DNA of 19,808 nucleotides from a virus (Duplodnaviria > Heunggongvirae > Uroviricota > Caudoviricetes), in the IMG/VR virus record IMGVR_UViG_2617270952_000001; one strand, written 5' to 3'. The notes beneath the pieces are model-generated. The model did not search any database. It had not been told where the DNA came from and saw nothing but the letters and a program-made list of their open reading frames with translations. Each line of letters starts with the position of its first letter. The stretch's first letter is position 1. Positions 1,323-7,158 of this stretch are shown here, one piece after another. Both the position numbers and the translations under genes were made by a program.

Positions 1323-1451
1323 ATTCGTAAGGCTACAGATACGTATATCTGAATAATTAAATTCAGTTCTGTAAATAAAATTTAATCCTTAACCGGATGG
1401 ATTTCTGCACCCTCAGAACATCAGGAGGCCGCCCGAAAGGGCGGTAGTGAA

Positions 1452-1634
1452 ATGCGAAAGTTCAAAATTATTATTGAAACGGGAATAGCTGGTGGAGATT
1501 TTGAGGATGTATTCGAAGTGGACGATGACGCAACACCTGAGGAAATTCATGACGGAGCATAAGAAATTTTCTTTAACTACTGCAATTACTCATACCACGA
1601 AATAAAAGACGATGAGGAAGAACAAAGTGGCTGA
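1452..1634 (+). pseudogene. Small acidic phage protein (about 60 codons) interrupted by an in-frame TAA at 1560-1562
   Basis: MRKFKIIIETGIAGGDFEDVFEVDDDATPEEIHDGA*EIFFNYCNYSYHEIKDDEEEQSG*. AGGAGG lies at 1423-1428 with a hairpin before the ATG. The frame stays open and protein-like after the stop. Confidence 0.5.
1488..1495 (+). other. Chi site (GCTGGTGG)
   Basis: Exact 8-mer match read directly from the sequence. Confidence 0.9.
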
Positions 1635-1803
1635 TTTTTGTTCAGCTAAATATAACATCAGTTTTGAAGAGCGGGATGAACTATTAATGGACTATGGTGA
1701 GTTACGCGGTGGAAGTGCTGCTGATGTCGAATCCTAGCGTGATGACTATGAAGCGGGAAAAACTCCGGTCGAAGCATATTGTGATGAGTGGGGCGATGAA
1801 TGA
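1627..1803 (+). pseudogene. Small phage ORF interrupted by an in-frame TAG at 1735-1737
   Basis: GTG 1627 sits behind GAGGAAG and overlaps the preceding stop (GTGGCTGA). An alternative ATG is at 1612. The frame reads VADFCSAKYNISFEERDELLMDYGELRGGSAADVES*RDDYEAGKTPVEAYCDEWGDE*, and its stop overlaps the next start (ATGA). Confidence 0.45.
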
Positions 1804-2087
1804 GCGAGATTAATTATCAGGAAGGGCATGAAACGGCGGGGGAAGCAAAACCAGTGGCATGGCGATATCGCTACGTGAAAAAAGGCGTTACGGACTTTCA
1901 GGGGAAGTAGTGGTCTGGTGACTGGAAATATGTACCGAAAAAAGAGGATTGTAACGACAGGCCGAACTATCAAATTCAGGCCTTATTCACTGCCTCACCA
2001 GTCCCAGTTACATCAGAAGAACTGGTTAAAGCTGTGCACTTTTATGAACAACTAAAACGCGAAAATCCACCAACATCCGGCAACTAG
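1800..2087 (+). pseudogene. Small phage ORF interrupted by an in-frame TAG at 1908-1910
   Basis: MSEINYQEGHETAGEAKPVAWRYRYVKKGVTDFQGK*WSGDWKYVPKKEDCNDRPNYQIQALFTASPVPVTSEELVKAVHFYEQLKRENPPTSGN* (stop 2085-2087). Confidence 0.5.
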
Positions 2088-2341
2088 ATTAATGGATTAA
2101 CTATGTCGGTTAAACGACCAGCCAACTGAAAAAGCGGAAACCTGATTACAGGTTGCCAGATAAGGCAATGAGCTACCTGGCGCGGAACGGACTGATAAGT
2201 ATGGGGAATGTTTTACGATGAACCTTTAGACTAAAGAGTTTGTAACGCTATGTAAGTGATTTTTTCTGGTTTAGATATTTATATGTCCGGCCAAATTGAG
2301 GTGTGTTTAAATGTAATTGCACATTGATTGTAGGAGGAATA

Positions 2342-2521
2342 ATGAAAAACGCATTGCAGTTTTTGTTTGTTGCGTTCTGGTTGTTCGCATCATGTATGCC
2401 CATCATCTTCACAGCAAGGTATATGGAAAAAGTTGATGTTTTGATATTAATATTTGGATATATAAATGCCCTTTTTTTAGGGGTGTTCATGGCGGTCATG
2501 TGCATTGAATACTGGCGGTAA
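2342..2521 (+). CDS. Small (59 aa) predicted two-helix membrane protein
   Basis: AGGAGG at 2332-2337 precedes ATG 2342. The protein is MKNALQFLFVAFWLFASCMPIIFTARYMEKVDVLILIFGYINALFLGVFMAVMCIEYWR, with two hydrophobic stretches. Confidence 0.55.
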   Translation: MKNALQFLFVAFWLFASCMPIIFTARYMEKVDVLILIFGYINALFLGVFMAVMCIEYWR

Positions 2522-2576
2522 ATACAGCGAACTCCATTGGTTTAGTTGGATATTTACTGTGCTGGACAAAAACGGT

Positions 2577-2604
2577 TTGCGGGGAAATCTTAGTTAAGTA
2601 GAAT
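2577..2604 (+). promoter_or_regulatory. Candidate sigma-70 promoter of the hok-like toxin mRNA
   Basis: TTGCGG (2577-2582), a 16-nt spacer, then TAGAAT (2599-2604). This places the start near 2611, where similarity to the 5' end of hok mRNAs (GCTTGAGGCT.TCTGCCTC) begins. Confidence 0.4.
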
Positions 2605-2610
2605 GACTGC

Positions 2611-2795
2611 GGGTGCTTGAGGCTATCTGCCTCGGGCATGGACACCAACGGCAGATAGAGAAAAGCCCCAGTTAACATTACGCGTCCTGCAAGACGCTTA
2701 ACATTAATCTGAGGCCAATTTCATGCTAGACACATGTAGGTTAGCCTCTTACGTGCCGAAAGGCACGGAGAAGCAGGCTATTGTTAACACCAAGC
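2611..2795 (+). pseudogene. hok/mok-type type I toxin locus, 5' half (leader, mok-like ORF, SD and first codons), cut by the IS
   Basis: The 15-nt string GGAGAAGCAGGCTAT (2767-2781) is identical to the SD/start region of hokD at 6056-6070, but is followed by T (ATT) instead of G (ATG). The leader resembles plasmid R1 hok mRNA as I recall it (GCTTGAGGCTaTCTGCCTC, GGCAGAtAGA, AGCCCC, ATGcTAGaCACAT, TAGCCTCTTAC). The mok-like ORF ATG 2723 now runs into the IS and stops at 2798-2800. Confidence 0.6.
2658..2735 (-). ncRNA. Sok-like antisense RNA (approximate ends)
   Basis: The minus strand reads ...GTGTCTAGCATGAAATTGGCCTCAGATTAATGTTAAGCGTCTTGCAGGACGCGTAATGTTAACTGGGGCTTTTCTCT. It is complementary to the mok start region, contains a hairpin (GCGTC-TTGCAG-GACGC), and ends in a U-rich tail in the position of R1 Sok (...ACGGGGCUAUCUUCUUU, from memory). 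Confidence 0.4.
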
Positions 2796-4222
2796 TGTAA
2801 TGTCCCCTTTGAACCATTCTAAAATGTCCCCAGACAATTCTCTGGGGGATTTTTCATGATCAAAGAGACTGTTACGATGAGTCATAAGGAACTCCACCGA
2901 CTTCAGATTATTCAGGAACAAGCTGCGGCACGCATTGGCATTTCTATTCGGCAGGTTAAACGTCTGGTGCAACGGTATAGAAATGAAGGGCCTTCTGGTC
3001 TGGTTTCCCACCGACGTGGAAAGCGTCCTAATAATTCCTTTTCTACTGAATTCAGAGCAACAGTAATTTCACTCCTCAAAGGCCGTTACGCTGATTTTGG
3101 ACCTACGTTTGCGTGCGAAAAATTGCGCGAGATACACGGTTTATCTTTATCCGTTGAAACTCTCAGAAAGTGGATGATAGAAGAGGGGTTATGGCGTGAA
3201 CGCCGTCGTAAAATTGCCCGTATATATCAACGCCGCATGCGACGACCATCTTACGGTGAACTGATCCAGATTGATGGCTCACCTCATGACTGGTTTGAAA
3301 ATCGAGGCCCCAGATGTACACTGATCGTTTTCATTGATGATGCCACCAGTGCGTTGATGGCGTTGCGTTTTGTGCCTGCTGAAACAACCCGGGCTTACAT
3401 GGAAACCCTCCGGGGTTACCTTAATGATCATGGCGTACCGCTCGCTCTCTACTCTGATAGACACAGTATATTCAGGGTAAATAACCCAGAGCGGGAAGGT
3501 GAGCTGACCCAGTTCACTCGTGCGATAAAGACACTGGGCATCGAGCCAATCCATGCCAACAGCCCGCAGGCAAAAGGGCGGGTAGAGCGCGCCAATCAGA
3601 CACTACAGGACAGGCTGGTCAAAGAAATGCGGCTTCAGAATATCAGTGATATTGAAACAGCAAATGCATGGTTGCCGACCTTTATTGAAGCCTATAACAA
3701 CCGGTTCGCTACGTCGCCTCGTACTACTGATAATGCTCATCTTGATGTGCACCATTCTGAAGAGGAACTGGGTTATATCTTCAGCCTACAGGCGAAGCGC
3801 GTTCTGTCTAAAAATCTCACTTTCCAGTACAAAAGCAGTGCGTTTCAGGTACGCAGTGAGGGCCGGGGATATCGACTTAGGCATTCGGTTGTTACTGTAT
3901 GCGAGAACTTTGACGGTGAAATTAACGTTCTGTATGACGGGAAAGCGCTGGGCTGGGAAAAGTATGTTGATGGCCCGGAGCCTATACCACTGGATGATGA
4001 AAAGAGTGTCCATGAACGAGTGGATAATGCCCGTATTGATTTACGCTCAAAATACTATGTTAAACCTAAAGCTGACCATCCCTGGCTTACGCGCCGAACG
4101 CAAAGTCATCAGCAAGTTAAGCCCCCGAAGTTACCTAAAAAGAAGCCTGATCCCGATAAAAAAGATTGAAACCAAGATCGATTCGGTTGAGTGCATATCC
4201 ATTCATAGGGTAGATTCTTAAG
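2795..4222 (+). mobile_element. Insertion sequence (~1.43 kb) with a single rve/DDE transposase, inserted in the hok-like gene; ends uncertain by about 3 nt
   Basis: Imperfect terminal inverted repeats: TGTAATGTCCCCTTTGAA (2796-2813) against the complement of 4202-4219, AAGAATCTACCCTATGAA (12/18). AAG occurs on both sides (2792-2794 and 4220-4222). hok-like sequence stops at about 2795 and resumes at about 4220. Confidence 0.7.
2856..4169 (+). CDS. DDE (rve, integrase-core) transposase with N-terminal helix-turn-helix; IS481/ISNCY-like
   Basis: The 437-aa ORF has an HTH region (IGISIRQVKRLVQRYRNEG) and a candidate catalytic triad in IQIDGSPHDW, LYSDRHSIF and GRVERANQTLQD. GGGGGA lies 6 nt upstream of ATG 2856. 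The family call is from general resemblance only. Confidence 0.9.
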   Translation: MIKETVTMSHKELHRLQIIQEQAAARIGISIRQVKRLVQRYRNEGPSGLVSHRRGKRPNNSFSTEFRATVISLLKGRYADFGPTFACEKLREIHGLSLSVETLRKWMIEEGLWRERRRKIARIYQRRMRRPSYGELIQIDGSPHDWFENRGPRCTLIVFIDDATSALMALRFVPAETTRAYMETLRGYLNDHGVPLALYSDRHSIFRVNNPEREGELTQFTRAIKTLGIEPIHANSPQAKGRVERANQTLQDRLVKEMRLQNISDIETANAWLPTFIEAYNNRFATSPRTTDNAHLDVHHSEEELGYIFSLQAKRVLSKNLTFQYKSSAFQVRSEGRGYRLRHSVVTVCENFDGEINVLYDGKALGWEKYVDGPEPIPLDDEKSVHERVDNARIDLRSKYYVKPKADHPWLTRRTQSHQQVKPPKLPKKKPDPDKKD

Positions 4223-4336
4223 TCGCGTTTCTGGTGTTCATTTTCGGGTGGTTTGTTACTTGTTTTACCGGGGATATGCCAGAAACGCGCTGAGTCAGTC
4301 TGGGCGGTGCGCGTAATGAGGCGTTATGGTAAATAG
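4220..4336 (+). pseudogene. hok-like toxin gene, 3' part (degenerate, frame-disrupted)
   Basis: A hydrophobic stretch (VAFLVFIFGWFVTCFTGD) aligns with the HokE transmembrane segment ending in GD. The C-terminal ...ICQKRAESVWAVRVMRRYGK* (stop 4334-4336; GGTAAATAGC versus R1 GGTAAGTAGC) lies in another frame. At least one frameshift is therefore present, in addition to ATT in place of ATG. Confidence 0.5.
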
Positions 4337-4562
4337 CCTATGCTAATGTCCGCTAAGAGCAAGAAGCGGAAGTTGGCAGTTTTGTGGACTGTCCCCACAA
4401 AAGTGACTACAGAAATAGTTGCAATTCATAATTGATCATGGGTTGTCAGTTAAACTCGTGGCGATTTAAATAGACTAATTGGGAGTGCGTCCATTACTTA
4501 TATCTTGTAATGTTAACTATCAGAAATGATACAAAGATAATATGTCTTTAAAGAAAAGGCTG

Positions 4563-4591
4563 ATGGCGAAAAGTGGCCCGATGAGGGCCAC
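4563..4591 (-). terminator. Rho-independent terminator downstream of flxA
   Basis: On the minus strand: GTGGCCC-TCATC-GGGCCAC followed by TTTTCGCC. Confidence 0.6.
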
Positions 4592-4605
4592 AATACGGCT
4601 GTCAC

Positions 4606-4938
4606 TTAGACGTAAATATCAATGGTGCCAGCGGTATTTGTATCGTCTTTTTTCTCTTCTTTTTTATCAGGCTGAACTGTCGCGTCTTCATTCTTTTTCT
4701 CTGCCTGCTGCCTTAACAACTGCTCCAGTTGAGCCCAGAGGCTTTCAATTTGCTTCTGTACCAATGCAGCCATTTCTTTTTTCTGCTGTGTCGTCATCCC
4801 CTCTTCCGATGAGATTTTCCCAAGCTTTTCAGTCAGCACCTGAATTTGTCTTGTGATTTTGGCTATTTCTGATGTTCCTTCCGGGGCGGAGTTGTTTGAA
4901 ATAACGGTTGAGGTATTTCCCTGAATTGTGACAGACAT
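4606..4938 (-). CDS. flxA: FlxA (Qin prophage, FliA-regulated protein)
   Basis: The 110-aa ORF MSVTIQGNTSTVISNNSAPEG...TAGTIDIYV is recognised as K-12 FlxA. An AAGGAG SD and a sigma-28 promoter lie upstream. Confidence 0.9.
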   Translation of the reverse strand: MSVTIQGNTSTVISNNSAPEGTSEIAKITRQIQVLTEKLGKISSEEGMTTQQKKEMAALVQKQIESLWAQLEQLLRQQAEKKNEDATVQPDKKEEKKDDTNTAGTIDIYV

Positions 4939-4961
4939 AGATTTCTCCTTTTAAAAAAGCA

Positions 4962-4988
4962 CTATCGGCATGCACAAAAAAATCTTTA
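4962..4988 (-). promoter_or_regulatory. Sigma-28 (FliA) class 3 promoter of flxA
   Basis: The minus strand reads TAAAGATT-N11-GCCGATAG, against the consensus TAAAGTTT-N11-GCCGATAA. Confidence 0.75.
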
Positions 4989-5069
4989 ATCGTATTTCTT
5001 GTGTCATTAATTGTTTGATGTTCAGATTGTTTTCCTCGCGGGCTGGCGCGCCTCAGAAAGTAAAGCTTG

Positions 5070-5097
5070 TTGACAGGGGTAAACGTTCGGCAATAAT
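5070..5097 (+). promoter_or_regulatory. Orphan near-consensus sigma-70 promoter pointing right (antisense to ydfV, towards relB)
   Basis: TTGACA (5070-5075), a 16-nt spacer, then AATAAT (5092-5097). No credible plus-strand ORF follows. Confidence 0.35.
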
Positions 5098-5140
5098 TTT
5101 CTGCCGCATGCGGGTGTTGCATAAAACGTGTTACGTTCCT

Positions 5141-5446
5141 TTATCGACAGGTCAGGTCACCGCTCACCCGCCGACGAGAAAGCAACACTGACATGCTAAA
5201 GCAAAAAATAGATGAATAAGTTGAGTTGTGCATATGTAGCCTGACCGTCACAAAGTATATGGTGTCTGTACCAGTAAGATGATGGCCGGACTCTTTAAAA
5301 ACGAGCTGACCTGCACAATACAGGATGGACTTAGCAATGGCTGCTCCTGGCACAAAGCGGACAGTGATCACCGTTCTTACGACTACTTTCTGACTTCCTT
5401 CGTGACTTGCCCTAAGCATGTTGTTGTGCGATACTTGTAATGACAT
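5141..5446 (-). CDS. ydfV: YdfV (Qin prophage, uncharacterised)
   Basis: The 101-aa ORF matches my recollection of K-12 YdfV. Its coding reality is doubtful because its start lies inside the relBE operator. Confidence 0.5.
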   Translation of the reverse strand: MSLQVSHNNMLRASHEGSQKVVVRTVITVRFVPGAAIAKSILYCAGQLVFKESGHHLTGTDTIYFVTVRLHMHNSTYSSIFCFSMSVLLSRRRVSGDLTCR

Positions 5447-5459
5447 TTGTAATTACAAG
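5432..5459 (+). promoter_or_regulatory. relBE operator (relO) / promoter region
   Basis: Palindromic repeats ACTTGTAATGACATTTGTAATTACAAG lie immediately upstream of the relB SD (AGAGG) and ATG 5471. Confidence 0.7.
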
Positions 5460-5470
5460 AGGTGTAAGAC

Positions 5471-5710
5471 ATGGGTAGCATTAACCTGCGTATTGACGAT
5501 GAACTTAAAGCGCGTTCTTACGCCGCGCTTGAAAAAATGGGTGTAACTCCTTCTGAAGCGCTTCGTCTCATGCTCGAGTATATCGCTGACAATGAACGCT
5601 TGCCGTTCAAACAGACACTCCTGAGTGATGAAGATGCTGAACTTGTGGAGATAGTGAAAGAACGGCTTCGTAATCCTAAGCCAGTACGTGTGACGCTGGA
5701 TGAACTCTGA
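5471..5710 (+). CDS. relB: RelB antitoxin
   Basis: The 79-aa MGSINLRIDDELKARSYAALEKMGV...VRVTLDEL is recognised as K-12 RelB. It overlaps relE by TGATG. Confidence 0.95.
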   Translation: MGSINLRIDDELKARSYAALEKMGVTPSEALRLMLEYIADNERLPFKQTLLSDEDAELVEIVKERLRNPKPVRVTLDEL

Positions 5711-5997
5711 TGGCGTATTTTCTGGATTTTGACGAGCGGGCACTAAAGGAATGGCGAAAGCTGGGCTCGACGGTACGTGAACAGTTGAAAAAGAAGCTGG
5801 TTGAAGTACTTGAGTCACCCCGGATTGAAGCAAACAAGCTCCGTGGTATGCCTGATTGTTACAAGATTAAGCTCCGGTCTTCAGGCTATCGCCTTGTATA
5901 CCAGGTTATAGACGAGAAAGTTGTCGTTTTCGTGATTTCTGTTGGGAAAAGAGAACGCTCGGAAGTATATAGCGAGGCGGTCAAACGCATTCTCTGA
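5710..5997 (+). CDS. relE: RelE mRNA interferase toxin
   Basis: The 95-aa MAYFLDFDERALKEWRKLGSTVREQLKKKL...AVKRIL is recognised as K-12 RelE. Confidence 0.95.
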   Translation: MAYFLDFDERALKEWRKLGSTVREQLKKKLVEVLESPRIEANKLRGMPDCYKIKLRSSGYRLVYQVIDEKVVVFVISVGKRERSEVYSEAVKRIL

Positions 5998-6068
5998 ACC
6001 AAAGCATGACATCTCTGTTTCGCACCGAAGGTGACACTTCTGCTTTGCGTTGACAGGAGAAGCAGGCT

Positions 6069-6224
6069 ATGAAGCAGCAAAAGGCGATGTTAATCGCCCT
6101 GATCGTCATCTGTTTAACCGTCATAGTGACGGCACTGGTAACGAGGAAAGACCTCTGCGAGGTACGAATCCGAACCGGCCAGACGGAGGTCGCTGTCTTC
6201 ACAGCTTACGAACCTGAGGAGTAA
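6069..6224 (+). CDS. hokD: HokD (RelF) small membrane toxin, 51 aa
   Basis: ATG 6069 sits behind GGAGAAG. The protein MKQQKAMLIALIVICLTVIVTALVTRKDLCEVRIRTGQTEVAVFTAYEPEE* is below the ORF-track length cut-off. Confidence 0.9.
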   Translation: MKQQKAMLIALIVICLTVIVTALVTRKDLCEVRIRTGQTEVAVFTAYEPEE

Positions 6225-6292
6225 GAGACCCGGCGGGGGAGAAATCCCTCGCCACCTCTGATGTGGCAGGCATCCTCAACGCACCCGCACTT

Positions 6293-6318
6293 AACCCGCT
6301 TCGGCGGGGTTTTGTTTT
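6293..6318 (+). terminator. Rho-independent terminator of relB-relE-hokD
   Basis: CCCGC-TTCG-GCGGG followed by GTTTTGTTTTTATTTT. Confidence 0.7.
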
Positions 6319-6440
6319 TATTTTCAACGCGTTTGAAGTTCTGGACGGTGCCGGAATAGAATCAAAAATACTTAAGTAGCGCGCAGGGATAAGAGGGATG
6401 GTCCCTTAAAGGGGAGAGCTAATTATCCGGAAGGATTCTG

Positions 6441-6692
6441 ATGATGAACATCGAAGAACTGCGTAAAATTTTTTGTGAAGATGGCCTCTATGCTGTGTGC
6501 GTTGAAAATGGAAATCTTGTTAGTCATTACCGCATTATGTGTTTGCGAAAGAATGGGGCTGCGTTAATTAATTTTGTGGATGCTCGGGTCACGGACGGAT
6601 TTATCTTGCGCGAAGGTGAGTTTGTCACTTCATTACAGGCATTGAAAGAGATCGGAATAAAAGCTGGCTTTTCTGCTTTTTCAGGAGAATAA
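6441..6692 (+). CDS. rem: Rem (Qin prophage, uncharacterised)
   Basis: The 83-aa MMNIEELRKIFCEDGLYAVCVENGNLVSHYRIMCLRKNG... is recognised as K-12 Rem. Confidence 0.85.
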   Translation: MMNIEELRKIFCEDGLYAVCVENGNLVSHYRIMCLRKNGAALINFVDARVTDGFILREGEFVTSLQALKEIGIKAGFSAFSGE

Positions 6693-6758
6693 ACTCATCT
6701 ACAATCTTGCGCGGGGCTGAACTCCCGCTGAGTAACACCGTGCCACCGGAGAAAACCG

Positions 6759-7158
6759 ATGGCACGCAACGCAAAATATTACAATTCTGATAATTCGCCC
6801 GTTCTTGCCTGCACGCACGGGCGGTATTCTCACGCATTCAAGTCTGAATGGTTCCAGCACCCTCCATGCACTGCAGAACAGGCCGAATGGCTGATTCATT
6901 CTTACCGCAGGCGCGGGTTCGAGGTTAAGAAAGCTCTCAGTCTCGACTATGCCAGCCGACGATCCGCATCATCTGATTGGTCACGGGCAGGGCGGAATGG
7001 GAACAAAAGCACATGATCTCTTTGTGTTGCCTTTGTGCAGAAAGCATCACAACGAGCTGCATACGGATACAGTGGCATTTGAAGATAAGTATGGCTCCCA
7101 ACTGGAGCTGATATTTCGTTTTATCGATCGCGCGCTGGCAATTGGCGTACTGGCGTAA
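6759..7158 (+). pseudogene. ydfU: ydfU-like (DUF968/HNH-like) gene, split over two frames and much shorter than I recall for K-12 ydfU
   Basis: ATG 6759 with a GGAGA SD opens frame 0 (stop 7014-7016). The conserved C-terminal module PADDPHHLIGHGQGGMGTKAHDLFVLPLCRKHHNELH (His-rich HNH-like) is in frame +1 (open 6895..7158). Only about 480 bp lie between rem and quuQ. Confidence 0.5.

Follow-up and report, generated by a model that had tools for sequence, protein, structure and literature searches.

A cargo-bearing IS1202-family transposon close to ISEsa1 in the hok/sok locus of a Qin-like prophage

The IS1202 family of insertion sequences (ISs), whose members terminate in TGT...ACA, includes ISEsa1, which has been described as a 1609-bp unit with terminal inverted repeats matching at 15/22 positions, no detectable target-site duplication and no target (Harmer and Hall, PMC10132070). 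Duplications of 15-17 bp, likewise with no target reported, have been described for the ISTde1 subgroup (Siguier et al., bioRxiv 10.1101/2022.12.17.520857), and a review from the Ramisetty group has described relBE as having integrated from plasmids into the hokD/mok locus, with no vehicle named (PMC6379469). Here we have analysed a 19,808-nucleotide stretch of viral DNA (hereafter the window; IMG/VR record IMGVR_UViG_2617270952_000001), in which a transposase gene lies beside a hok/sok leader and which over 2796-4222 and 2782-4374 is 98.1% DNA-identical to plasmid copies that bear the name ISEsa1 in RefSeq (ISEsa1: ISfinder; ISNCY/IS1202 group; Cronobacter sakazakii). Positions 2782-6055 very probably constitute a single 3274-bp IS1202-family transposon near ISEsa1, which behaves as the ISTde1 type does in producing 15-17-bp duplications and which has inserted into the hok/sok locus of a prophage.

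The ends have first been compared in ~30 copies, some of them only ~70% DNA-identical to the window, and the full comparison set comprises ~200 related loci (given by L numbers) and one empty site; for the alignments, four plasmid copies have been used, followed by 79 loci drawn from a species-representative genome collection. From the related loci and the empty site, the mobile unit has been delimited to 2782-6055. The left edge of conservation lies at 2782 (TGTTAAC...) in every copy irrespective of the flank, and the 14 bp 2782-2795 accompany every copy. When the window has been scanned with the reverse complement of the left inverted repeat (IRL), the sole match of at least 19/26 has been found at 6030-6055, at a chance expectation of 0.007; this right inverted repeat (IRR) ends in ...GCGTTGACA, and the repeat cores of the element ends read AATGTCCCC. 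Directly after the IRR, 6056-6070 repeats without a mismatch the 15 nt in front of the IRL (2767-2781). As a query for the empty site, the left flank has been joined to the sequence after 6070 and searched against complete E. coli genomes, 2514/5426 of which gave a single-piece match over at least 80% of the query length. In E. coli CP53 (L086), which carries the same prophage, the sok leader, a single GGAGAAGCAGGCTAT and hokD are contiguous (L086 2655-3300 corresponds to window 2135-2781, and L086 3285-3673 to window 6055-6443), which shows that 3274 bp have been inserted in the window and that 15 bp of the target have been duplicated.

These ends have the properties of the IS1202 family, i.e., imperfect inverted repeats of ~24-26 bp (here 19/26), TGT...ACA termini and an inner core near each end, and the duplication (15 bp in the window against the empty site, 14-17 bp in relatives) is of the 15-17-bp ISTde1 type. 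The inner repeat at 2813-2831 is probably a second transposase-binding site (Table 1). The unit is not an IS in the strict sense, which would carry its own transposition genes only within 1.3-2 kb, as the 3274 bp also include flxA, ydfV, relB and relE; it is a transporter IS or unit transposon. A right end at ~4374-4411, where the flanks diverge, has been rejected, since neither a TGT/ACA terminus nor a duplication is present there. Replicative or one-ended transposition, considered for the pattern of a constant right flank and a variable left flank, has been dropped as unnecessary because the distal IRR was found and the "constant right flank" proved to be cargo.

Table 1. Features of the element and of its target locus, in positions of the window.
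Feature	Position	Strand	Remarks
hok/sok leader (tac, mok start, sokT region)	2611-2781	+	Target locus, left of the insertion; contiguous with hokD in L086
Target-site duplication, left copy	2767-2781		GGAGAAGCAGGCTAT; hok Shine-Dalgarno through AT of ATG; same 15-mer at 6056-6070
IRL	2782-2807	+	TGTTAACACCAAGCTGTAATGTCCCC; 5'-TGT terminus; 19/26 against reverse complement of 6030-6055
IRL-core inner repeat	2813-2831	+	ACCATTCTAAAATGTCCCC; direct-repeat family D3, 79% to 2789-2807, spacing 24 nt
Transposase gene (tnp), 437 aa	2856-4169	+	Uninterrupted open reading frame (ORF); N-terminal helix-turn-helix (HTH) domains, DDE core, C-terminal tail
27-bp in-frame deletion site	2911-2912	+	QESINRHIT lost, between TCAGGA repeats; reference is the 446-aa ISEsa1 transposase
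Conserved non-coding tail, 205 bp	4170-4374	+	Hairpins 4224-4234/4279-4289 and 4344-4353/4365-4374; several degenerate IRR-core-like motifs
Variable cargo segment	4375-5340		flxA plus most of ydfV
flxA	4606-4938	-	Pfam FlxA, 53.8 bits
ydfV	5141-5446	-	RefSeq annotation; no Pfam match
Conserved right module	5341-6029	+	relB promoter region, relB, relE
relB	5471-5710	+	Pfam RelB, 112 bits
relE	5710-5997	+	Pfam ParE_toxin, 51 bits
IRR-core inner repeat	6006-6024	+	ATGACATCTCTGTTTCGCA; 13/19 against 6031-6049, spacing 25 nt, mirroring the left end
IRR	6030-6055	+	GGTGACACTTCTGCTTTGCGTTGACA; ACA-3' terminus (6053-6055)
Target-site duplication, right copy	6056-6070		GGAGAAGCAGGCTAT; overlaps hokD start codon
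hokD ORF	6069-6224	+	Target-locus toxin gene; relBE now upstream

The comparison has further revealed a modular construction. Conservation of the transposase module extends beyond 4222 and stops at ~4360-4374 in all contexts, including the ~70% DNA-identical relatives; past 4374 the cargo differs from element to element and the right flank diverges across contexts, a few sequence types (Qin, ncrY, others) being shuffled against many left flanks. The right-module block has been found to be 90-99% identical in L087, L089, L078, L022 and L047, and the IRR of the window recurs unchanged in L087, L089, L090 and L093, at 25/26 positions in L078, L022 and L047, and with its final 18 nt in L038 (20/26). 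The hok locus of an Enterobacter asburiae plasmid (L093) harbours a 3301-bp element with an intact tnp, window-type cargo and a 14-bp duplication, to the right of which an intact Hok ORF follows. Plasmids of Klebsiella, Enterobacter, Phytobacter and Citrobacter carry 12,843-bp elements with the end modules 2782-4374 and ~5340-6055 (relBE and IRR) and a 10.5-kb cargo made up of ncrY-ncrC-ncrB-ncrA, a methyltransferase, chrB-chrA and a HupE/UreJ gene; perfect 15-bp duplications of these elements have been observed in two further hok loci (GGAGAAGTCAGCTAT in L089, GGAAATGTATGGGTC in L090). A 7694-bp version with a 16-bp duplication comes from a metagenome (L108). Outside hok loci, a 4275-bp element of Scandinavium (L038, 70% DNA identity) is flanked by a perfect 15-bp duplication, and L078, in which relBE accompanies a 333-aa protein of no known identity, by a 13/15 duplication. 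At the small end of the range stand simple ISs of 1330-1475 bp from metagenomic and environmental sequences, with near-identical IRRs and 15-17-bp duplications, and a 1449-bp simple IS of a Hahella relative (62% aa identity), present in ~10 copies in one genome with 15-16-bp duplications, the ends of which (left TGTTAGCCCAAAGCTGTAATGTCCCC, right GGGGACATTTTAGAATTGGGTTGACA) show a homologous IRL and the same inner-repeat layout as the window.

The cargo of L038 (4568-7020) encodes a GrpB-like protein, a hexapeptide-repeat acetyltransferase and a GNAT-toxin/RHH-antitoxin pair adjoining the IRR; a toxin-antitoxin module beside the right end thus recurs even where it is not relBE. In the window, the ydfV ORF straddles the boundary at ~5340 between the variable cargo and the relBE module, and it may be a chance hybrid ORF instead of a gene.

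The uninterrupted 437-aa ORF, which the earlier note had correctly read as a transposase gene, has HTH_32/HTH_29 matches at its N terminus and a weak, below-threshold rve_3 match in Pfam. The note had left the family open between IS481 and ISNCY/IS1202, and this question is now settled in favour of the latter, because the protein aligns to positions 7-365 of the 368 in the NCBIfam model NF033594 (ISNCY_2) with 456.4 bits (cut-off, 250) and the IS481 model NF033577 reaches only 125.7 bits against a cut-off of 224. The protein is an IS1202-family (ISNCY_2) DDE transposase, in which the motifs QIDGSPHDWF, LYSDRHSIF and GRVERANQTLQ are kept in alignment with relatives and the DDE residues are intact; a sequence search of the PDB has returned only a marginal match to a retroviral integrase core (E = 0.0098). 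RefSeq annotates the same DNA as an "ISNCY family transposase" pseudogene plus ydfW, the K-12 name for what are the final 49 codons of the ORF (4020-4169). Compared with the plasmid copies, annotated in RefSeq as "IS1202-like element ISEsa1 family transposase" (446 aa, WP_004196353.1), the window lacks 27 bp, and the lost QESINRHIT stretch in the N-terminal region is alignable in relatives down to 50% identity. Qin-site copies in viral contigs and metagenomes have lengths of 3274 bp (n = 16) and 3299-3303 bp (n = 17) in roughly equal numbers, and the deletion therefore postdates the insertion. The window copy is probably fixed, inactive and inherited along with the prophage, and its activity may have been lost through the missing nine residues of the N-terminal DNA-binding region. 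Two further length variants with the same 15-bp duplication have been noticed at the Qin site in viral contigs, L259 (4655 bp) and L268 (2261 bp), which presumably reflect a secondary insertion and an internal deletion, respectively.

With this anatomy, the elements differ from ISEsa1 as published in their unit length of 3.3-12.8 kb, in 26-bp repeats that start 14 bp further left, in 14-16-bp duplications and in the preference for the hok start. If translation begins at the second Met, the length agrees with the 439 aa published for the transposase. The catalogued ISEsa1 would correspond to 2796-4377, i.e., to the transposase module only, because this interval matches 1609 bp exactly once the 27 bp are added and because the repeats agree at 14/22 in the L018 copy.

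The non-coding tail that closes the transposase module contains the detected inverted repeats I17 and I19 and is kept in the ~70% DNA-identical relatives with a 2-nt indel, because of which 4222-4374 is not regarded as coding; a small hydrophobic peptide and a structured RNA have both been rejected for this segment, as the indel breaks the coding frame and no Rfam match exists. Its distal hairpin marks the exact point of cargo divergence and has undergone a compensatory change in L020 (CCGCT/AGCGG to CTGCT/AGCAG); candidate roles for the two conserved hairpins are those of a terminator, of binding sites or of a recombination site. An IS30-like element (N-terminal ...RTRINYTPEQKAIIWDRYKQGDS in L022) lies in L010, L022 and L023 at the equivalent of window 4360/4361, the loop of the terminal hairpin of the transposase module (AATGTCCGCT-N10-AGCGGACATT), and this insertion has been seen in ~90%-identical copies and in one ~70%-identical copy.

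The target is a hok/sok locus by its structured leader with the sok target and by its Hok/Gef ORF, which are contiguous in the empty site. A leader immediately upstream of the element has been verified by a full-length match of Rfam sok RF01794 to 2611-2782 (104 bits against a gathering threshold of 59), the final AUG of which, the hok start, lies at 2780-2782, and hence the hok leader truly abuts the element. On the other side, HOK_GEF scores 82.9 bits over 6069-6221, and tblastn gives 100% identity to HokD. The order of genes in the E. coli annotation of RefSeq (KwaB-like gene, transposase pseudogene, ydfW, flxA, ydfV, relB, relE, hokD, rem) identifies the locus as that of a Qin-like prophage of E. 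coli. By the insertion, hokD has been parted from its promoter, the mok reading frame and the sok target, and it now sits 71 nt behind relE with a duplicated ribosome-binding site. In K-12 strains, the part shared with the window begins only at 3985, with 99.9% identity over 3985-6822; a K-12 deletion that joins ydfX to ydfW, the transposase remnant, has taken away the hok leader, the IRL and 86% of tnp, so that of the terminal sequences just the IRR and a single 15-mer are left in K-12. Because of this deletion, the vehicle is invisible in K-12, whereas the window shows the complete element. The relBEF (relB-relE-hokD) operon of the K-12 Qin prophage is near-identical in DNA to the window apart from these losses, and it resembles a toxin-antitoxin pair fused to a leaderless hok because of the insertion and the K-12 deletion together. 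As transferred from the annotation of L001, window ~1350-2372 (+), just left of the hok locus, encodes a "Kiwa anti-phage protein KwaB-like domain-containing protein", upstream of which QueH and DUF977 genes are found; this segment is deleted in K-12.

The use of hok loci recurs across the comparison set. For the target analysis, loci have been pooled and distinct 45-nt left flanks counted: elements with an exact ISEsa1-type IRL have 33 distinct left flanks, about two thirds of which belong to hok leaders, representing 15 or more different hok loci. In the window and in L007, L011, L014, L025 and L039, the IRL begins precisely where a full-length Rfam sok match stops. In hok loci, the duplication begins directly after the leader hairpin ...GCCGAAAGGCAA (...GGCAA) and spans GGAG...AT(G), the hok ribosome-binding site, with junctions that differ by 1-2 nt among loci. 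GGCA has been found at -21 to -18 in 25/49 distinct 30-nt left flanks of IRLs beginning with TGTTAA (~1.6% being expected by chance; 8/98 in other clades), and 5 of these 25 flanks are clearly non-hok (GGCAA plus 15-16 nt). In L021, the same 15-mer has been used in the opposite orientation, the intact hok ORF running away from the IRL. In the tandem arrangements of L022 (2891-2952) and L191, a first IRR after the 3' end of relE is followed by 10-15 nt of hok Shine-Dalgarno/ATG sequence and by the IRL of a second element, a different family member, and one hok site has accordingly been used twice. These flanks suggest that the transposase would prefer a GGCAA-N15 target, of which hok leaders are an especially favoured form. 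In the literature searched, no link between IS1202-family elements and hok has been found.

Two side observations concern the same leaders. The right end of an IS3-family element (...TTTTTGGGGTCAGTACA, annotated ISKpn8 in L004) abuts the hok leader just before CGAGGCC, ~70 nt upstream of the hok ATG, in L004, L006, L008, L016 and L090, so that no fewer than four divergent hok loci are involved; hok leaders may hence contain a fixed point that is targeted by another, unrelated IS as well. In L018, a match to Rfam isrO (Hfq-binding small RNA, RF01397; 58.8 bits) at 2837-2950 (-) overlaps the first 24 nt of the IRL, which could mean either that the isrO model takes in a portion of an ISEsa1-type end or that the element has entered an isrO-like locus.

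The boundaries, the duplication, the empty site, the modularity of the cargo and the recurrent insertion at hok sites can be read directly from the aligned sequences. The left module comprises the 26-bp IRL, an inner repeat that is probably a binding site, the single DDE transposase gene and the non-coding tail of 205 bp; it is followed by a middle part that varies (flxA and ydfV in the window) and by a right module of relB, relE, an inner repeat and the 26-bp IRR. The transposase would make a 15-bp staggered cut in the prophage hok/sok locus directly after the leader hairpin ...GCCGAAAGGCA(A/C), presumably by DDE cut-and-join chemistry guided by recognition of GGCAA-N15 or of the hok leader. 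In this way the stretch from the hok Shine-Dalgarno to the AT came to be present twice; the sok/mok leader now lies left of the element, and hokD follows relBE on the other side, equipped with a ribosome-binding site of its own.

Other delimitations of the unit have to be weighed against this one. The earlier note had proposed a 1.43-kb single-ORF IS (2795-4222) inside the hok ORF, with a 0- or 3-bp duplication and the remainder of hok directly after 4222, a model that is almost certainly wrong. The 12/15 inverted similarity of 2799-2813 to 4202-4216 behind its weak terminal repeats does exist, and such a score is reached by only 1.35% of 30-mer pairs taken at random from the window, but the true repeats lie at 2782-2807 and 6030-6055; AAG is present on both sides (2792-2794 and 4220-4222), but as a chance match, the real duplication being 15 bp. 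The hydrophobic ORF at 4222-4290, taken for the transmembrane segment of Hok, has neither a HOK_GEF match nor a tblastn match to six Hok proteins and is broken by the 2-nt indel of the relatives, and the true hok ORF, hokD, follows 1.85 kb downstream. Conservation reaches 2782 and ~4374 in all copies irrespective of the flank, the empty site reveals an insertion of 3274 bp instead of 1.43 kb, and a duplication or Hok remainder at 2795/4222 has been sought and not found. The other copies end at different termini, an outcome that the note had itself named as speaking against its ends, with an extension to ~4411 as the example. What survives is that a DDE element of the ISNCY/IS1202 type interrupts the hok locus; its anatomy does not, since the left end lies 13 bp further out and the right end at 6055. 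Highly improbable, though less so, is a unit as catalogued for ISEsa1, which would extend over ~2796-4377 (1.6 kb) without a duplication, flxA-ydfV-relBE being resident and the 15-bp repeat and distal IRR being coincidental or relics of another element. The published description (1609 bp, 15/22, no duplication; PMC10132070), the agreement of 2796-4377 plus the 27 missing bp with that length, an IRR-core-like motif at 4366-4374 and the context-dependent sequence right of 4374 are all in line with it. No duplication has been found, however, at the 2796/4377 ends in the distinct copies examined or in PMC10132070, the empty site lacks the entire 2782-6055, three cargo lengths share the relBE-IRR module end with 14-16-bp duplications, and the 14 bp left of 2796 move with every copy.

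A different objection accepts the boundaries and attributes the hok association to homologous recombination via hok flanks and/or to selection for toxin-disarming insertions rather than to a choice of the transposase. This explanation, which we consider unlikely, would account for the hybrid flanks of L087 (left GGAGATGTATGGGTC, right GGAGAAAAAGGCTAT), for the non-hok left and hok right flank of L088 and for the accumulation of other IS types in hok leaders. Both processes may add to the pattern, but they are insufficient because five hok loci (window, L089, L090, L093 and L108) each carry their own matching duplication of 14-16 bp. Moreover, the junctions shift by 1-2 nt among loci, the 15-mer has been used in the opposite orientation in L021 and by tandem insertions in L022 and L191, and non-hok targets share GGCAA-N15, whereas the disarming of a toxin would permit insertions anywhere in ~400 bp. 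Several points weigh against the 3274-bp transposon and its proposed behaviour. Some plasmid copies (L087, L088, L091) have no matching duplications, and recombination between copies or hok loci must therefore also reshuffle flanks. The precise swap of cargo at 4374, beside a conserved hairpin, lacks an explanation, and the extent of 2796-4377 for ISEsa1 is deduced from a length match and a repeat match in one copy. The window copy, with its 9-aa deletion, occupies a single identical site in ~790 E. coli genomes and consequently gives no sign of recent movement; the case for transposition is built from sequence comparison.

In comparison with described systems, the 3274-bp transposon and its relatives share with the ISTde1 subgroup a single DDE transposase, 5'-TGT termini, a conserved inner core of the inverted repeats and 15-17-bp duplications, and the Hahella (1449 bp) and metagenomic (1330-1475 bp) simple ISs match the description of that subgroup exactly. 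Members of the subgroup are described as 1.3-2 kb in size, almost never on plasmids and without target specificity, whereas the enterobacterial elements bear cargo, occur commonly on plasmids and in prophages and have hok as their target. With the "dif hunters" ISAjo2/ISAba32 and with Tn7 (attTn7), they have in common a TnsB-like DDE transposase, TGT...ACA ends, repeated inner binding sites and insertion at a constant distance from a conserved sequence feature, with one orientation predominating. The dif hunters, however, insert 5 bp from the XerC site with a 5-bp duplication, whereas the landmark here is the hok leader (GGCAA, then 15 bp); Tn7 needs TnsA, TnsC and TnsD, and the present elements include one insertion in reverse orientation. 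No Tn7-like accessory genes (TnsA, TnsC, TnsD/TniQ) are present, the ORFs in 2782-6055 being tnp, flxA, ydfV, relB and relE only. Transporter ISs such as ISKpn21, ISKpn65 and ISRel10 also belong to the IS1202 family and carry passengers that lie between the transposase gene and an element end, but they hold one unrelated hypothetical ORF and fall into the 5-bp-duplication group, in contrast to the relBE module and the exchangeable cargo of up to 10.5 kb described here.

The element type itself is known; the complete mobile unit, the 15-bp duplication, the relBE-plus-cargo structure and the preference for the hok start are absent from the descriptions of ISEsa1 and IS1202 that we have read. The findings would correct the anatomy of the catalogued ISEsa1, which has been listed among the few IS1202-family members without duplication and target, and would add hok/sok loci as a second target class for a family hitherto known for hunting dif sites. 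They identify a vehicle for the entry of relBE, a much-studied toxin-antitoxin system, into the E. coli chromosome and account for the presence of hokD without its own leader within the relB operon of K-12. The same vehicle carries the 10.5-kb block for nickel/cobalt and chromate resistance among plasmids of Klebsiella, Enterobacter, Citrobacter and Phytobacter. For annotation, caution is advised, since ydfW and probably ydfV are fragments of the element and not prophage genes. On balance, we lean towards regarding ISEsa1-type elements as site-directed "hok hunters", in which a single IS1202-family transposase would recognise hok-leader DNA (minimally GGCAA), cut 15 bp downstream and deliver relBE together with metal-resistance or other cargo into plasmid and prophage hok/sok loci, creating the relBEF operon, and of which the 1609-bp ISEsa1 would be a mis-delimited fragment. 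If this holds true, one toxin-antitoxin system would have been rewired behind another.

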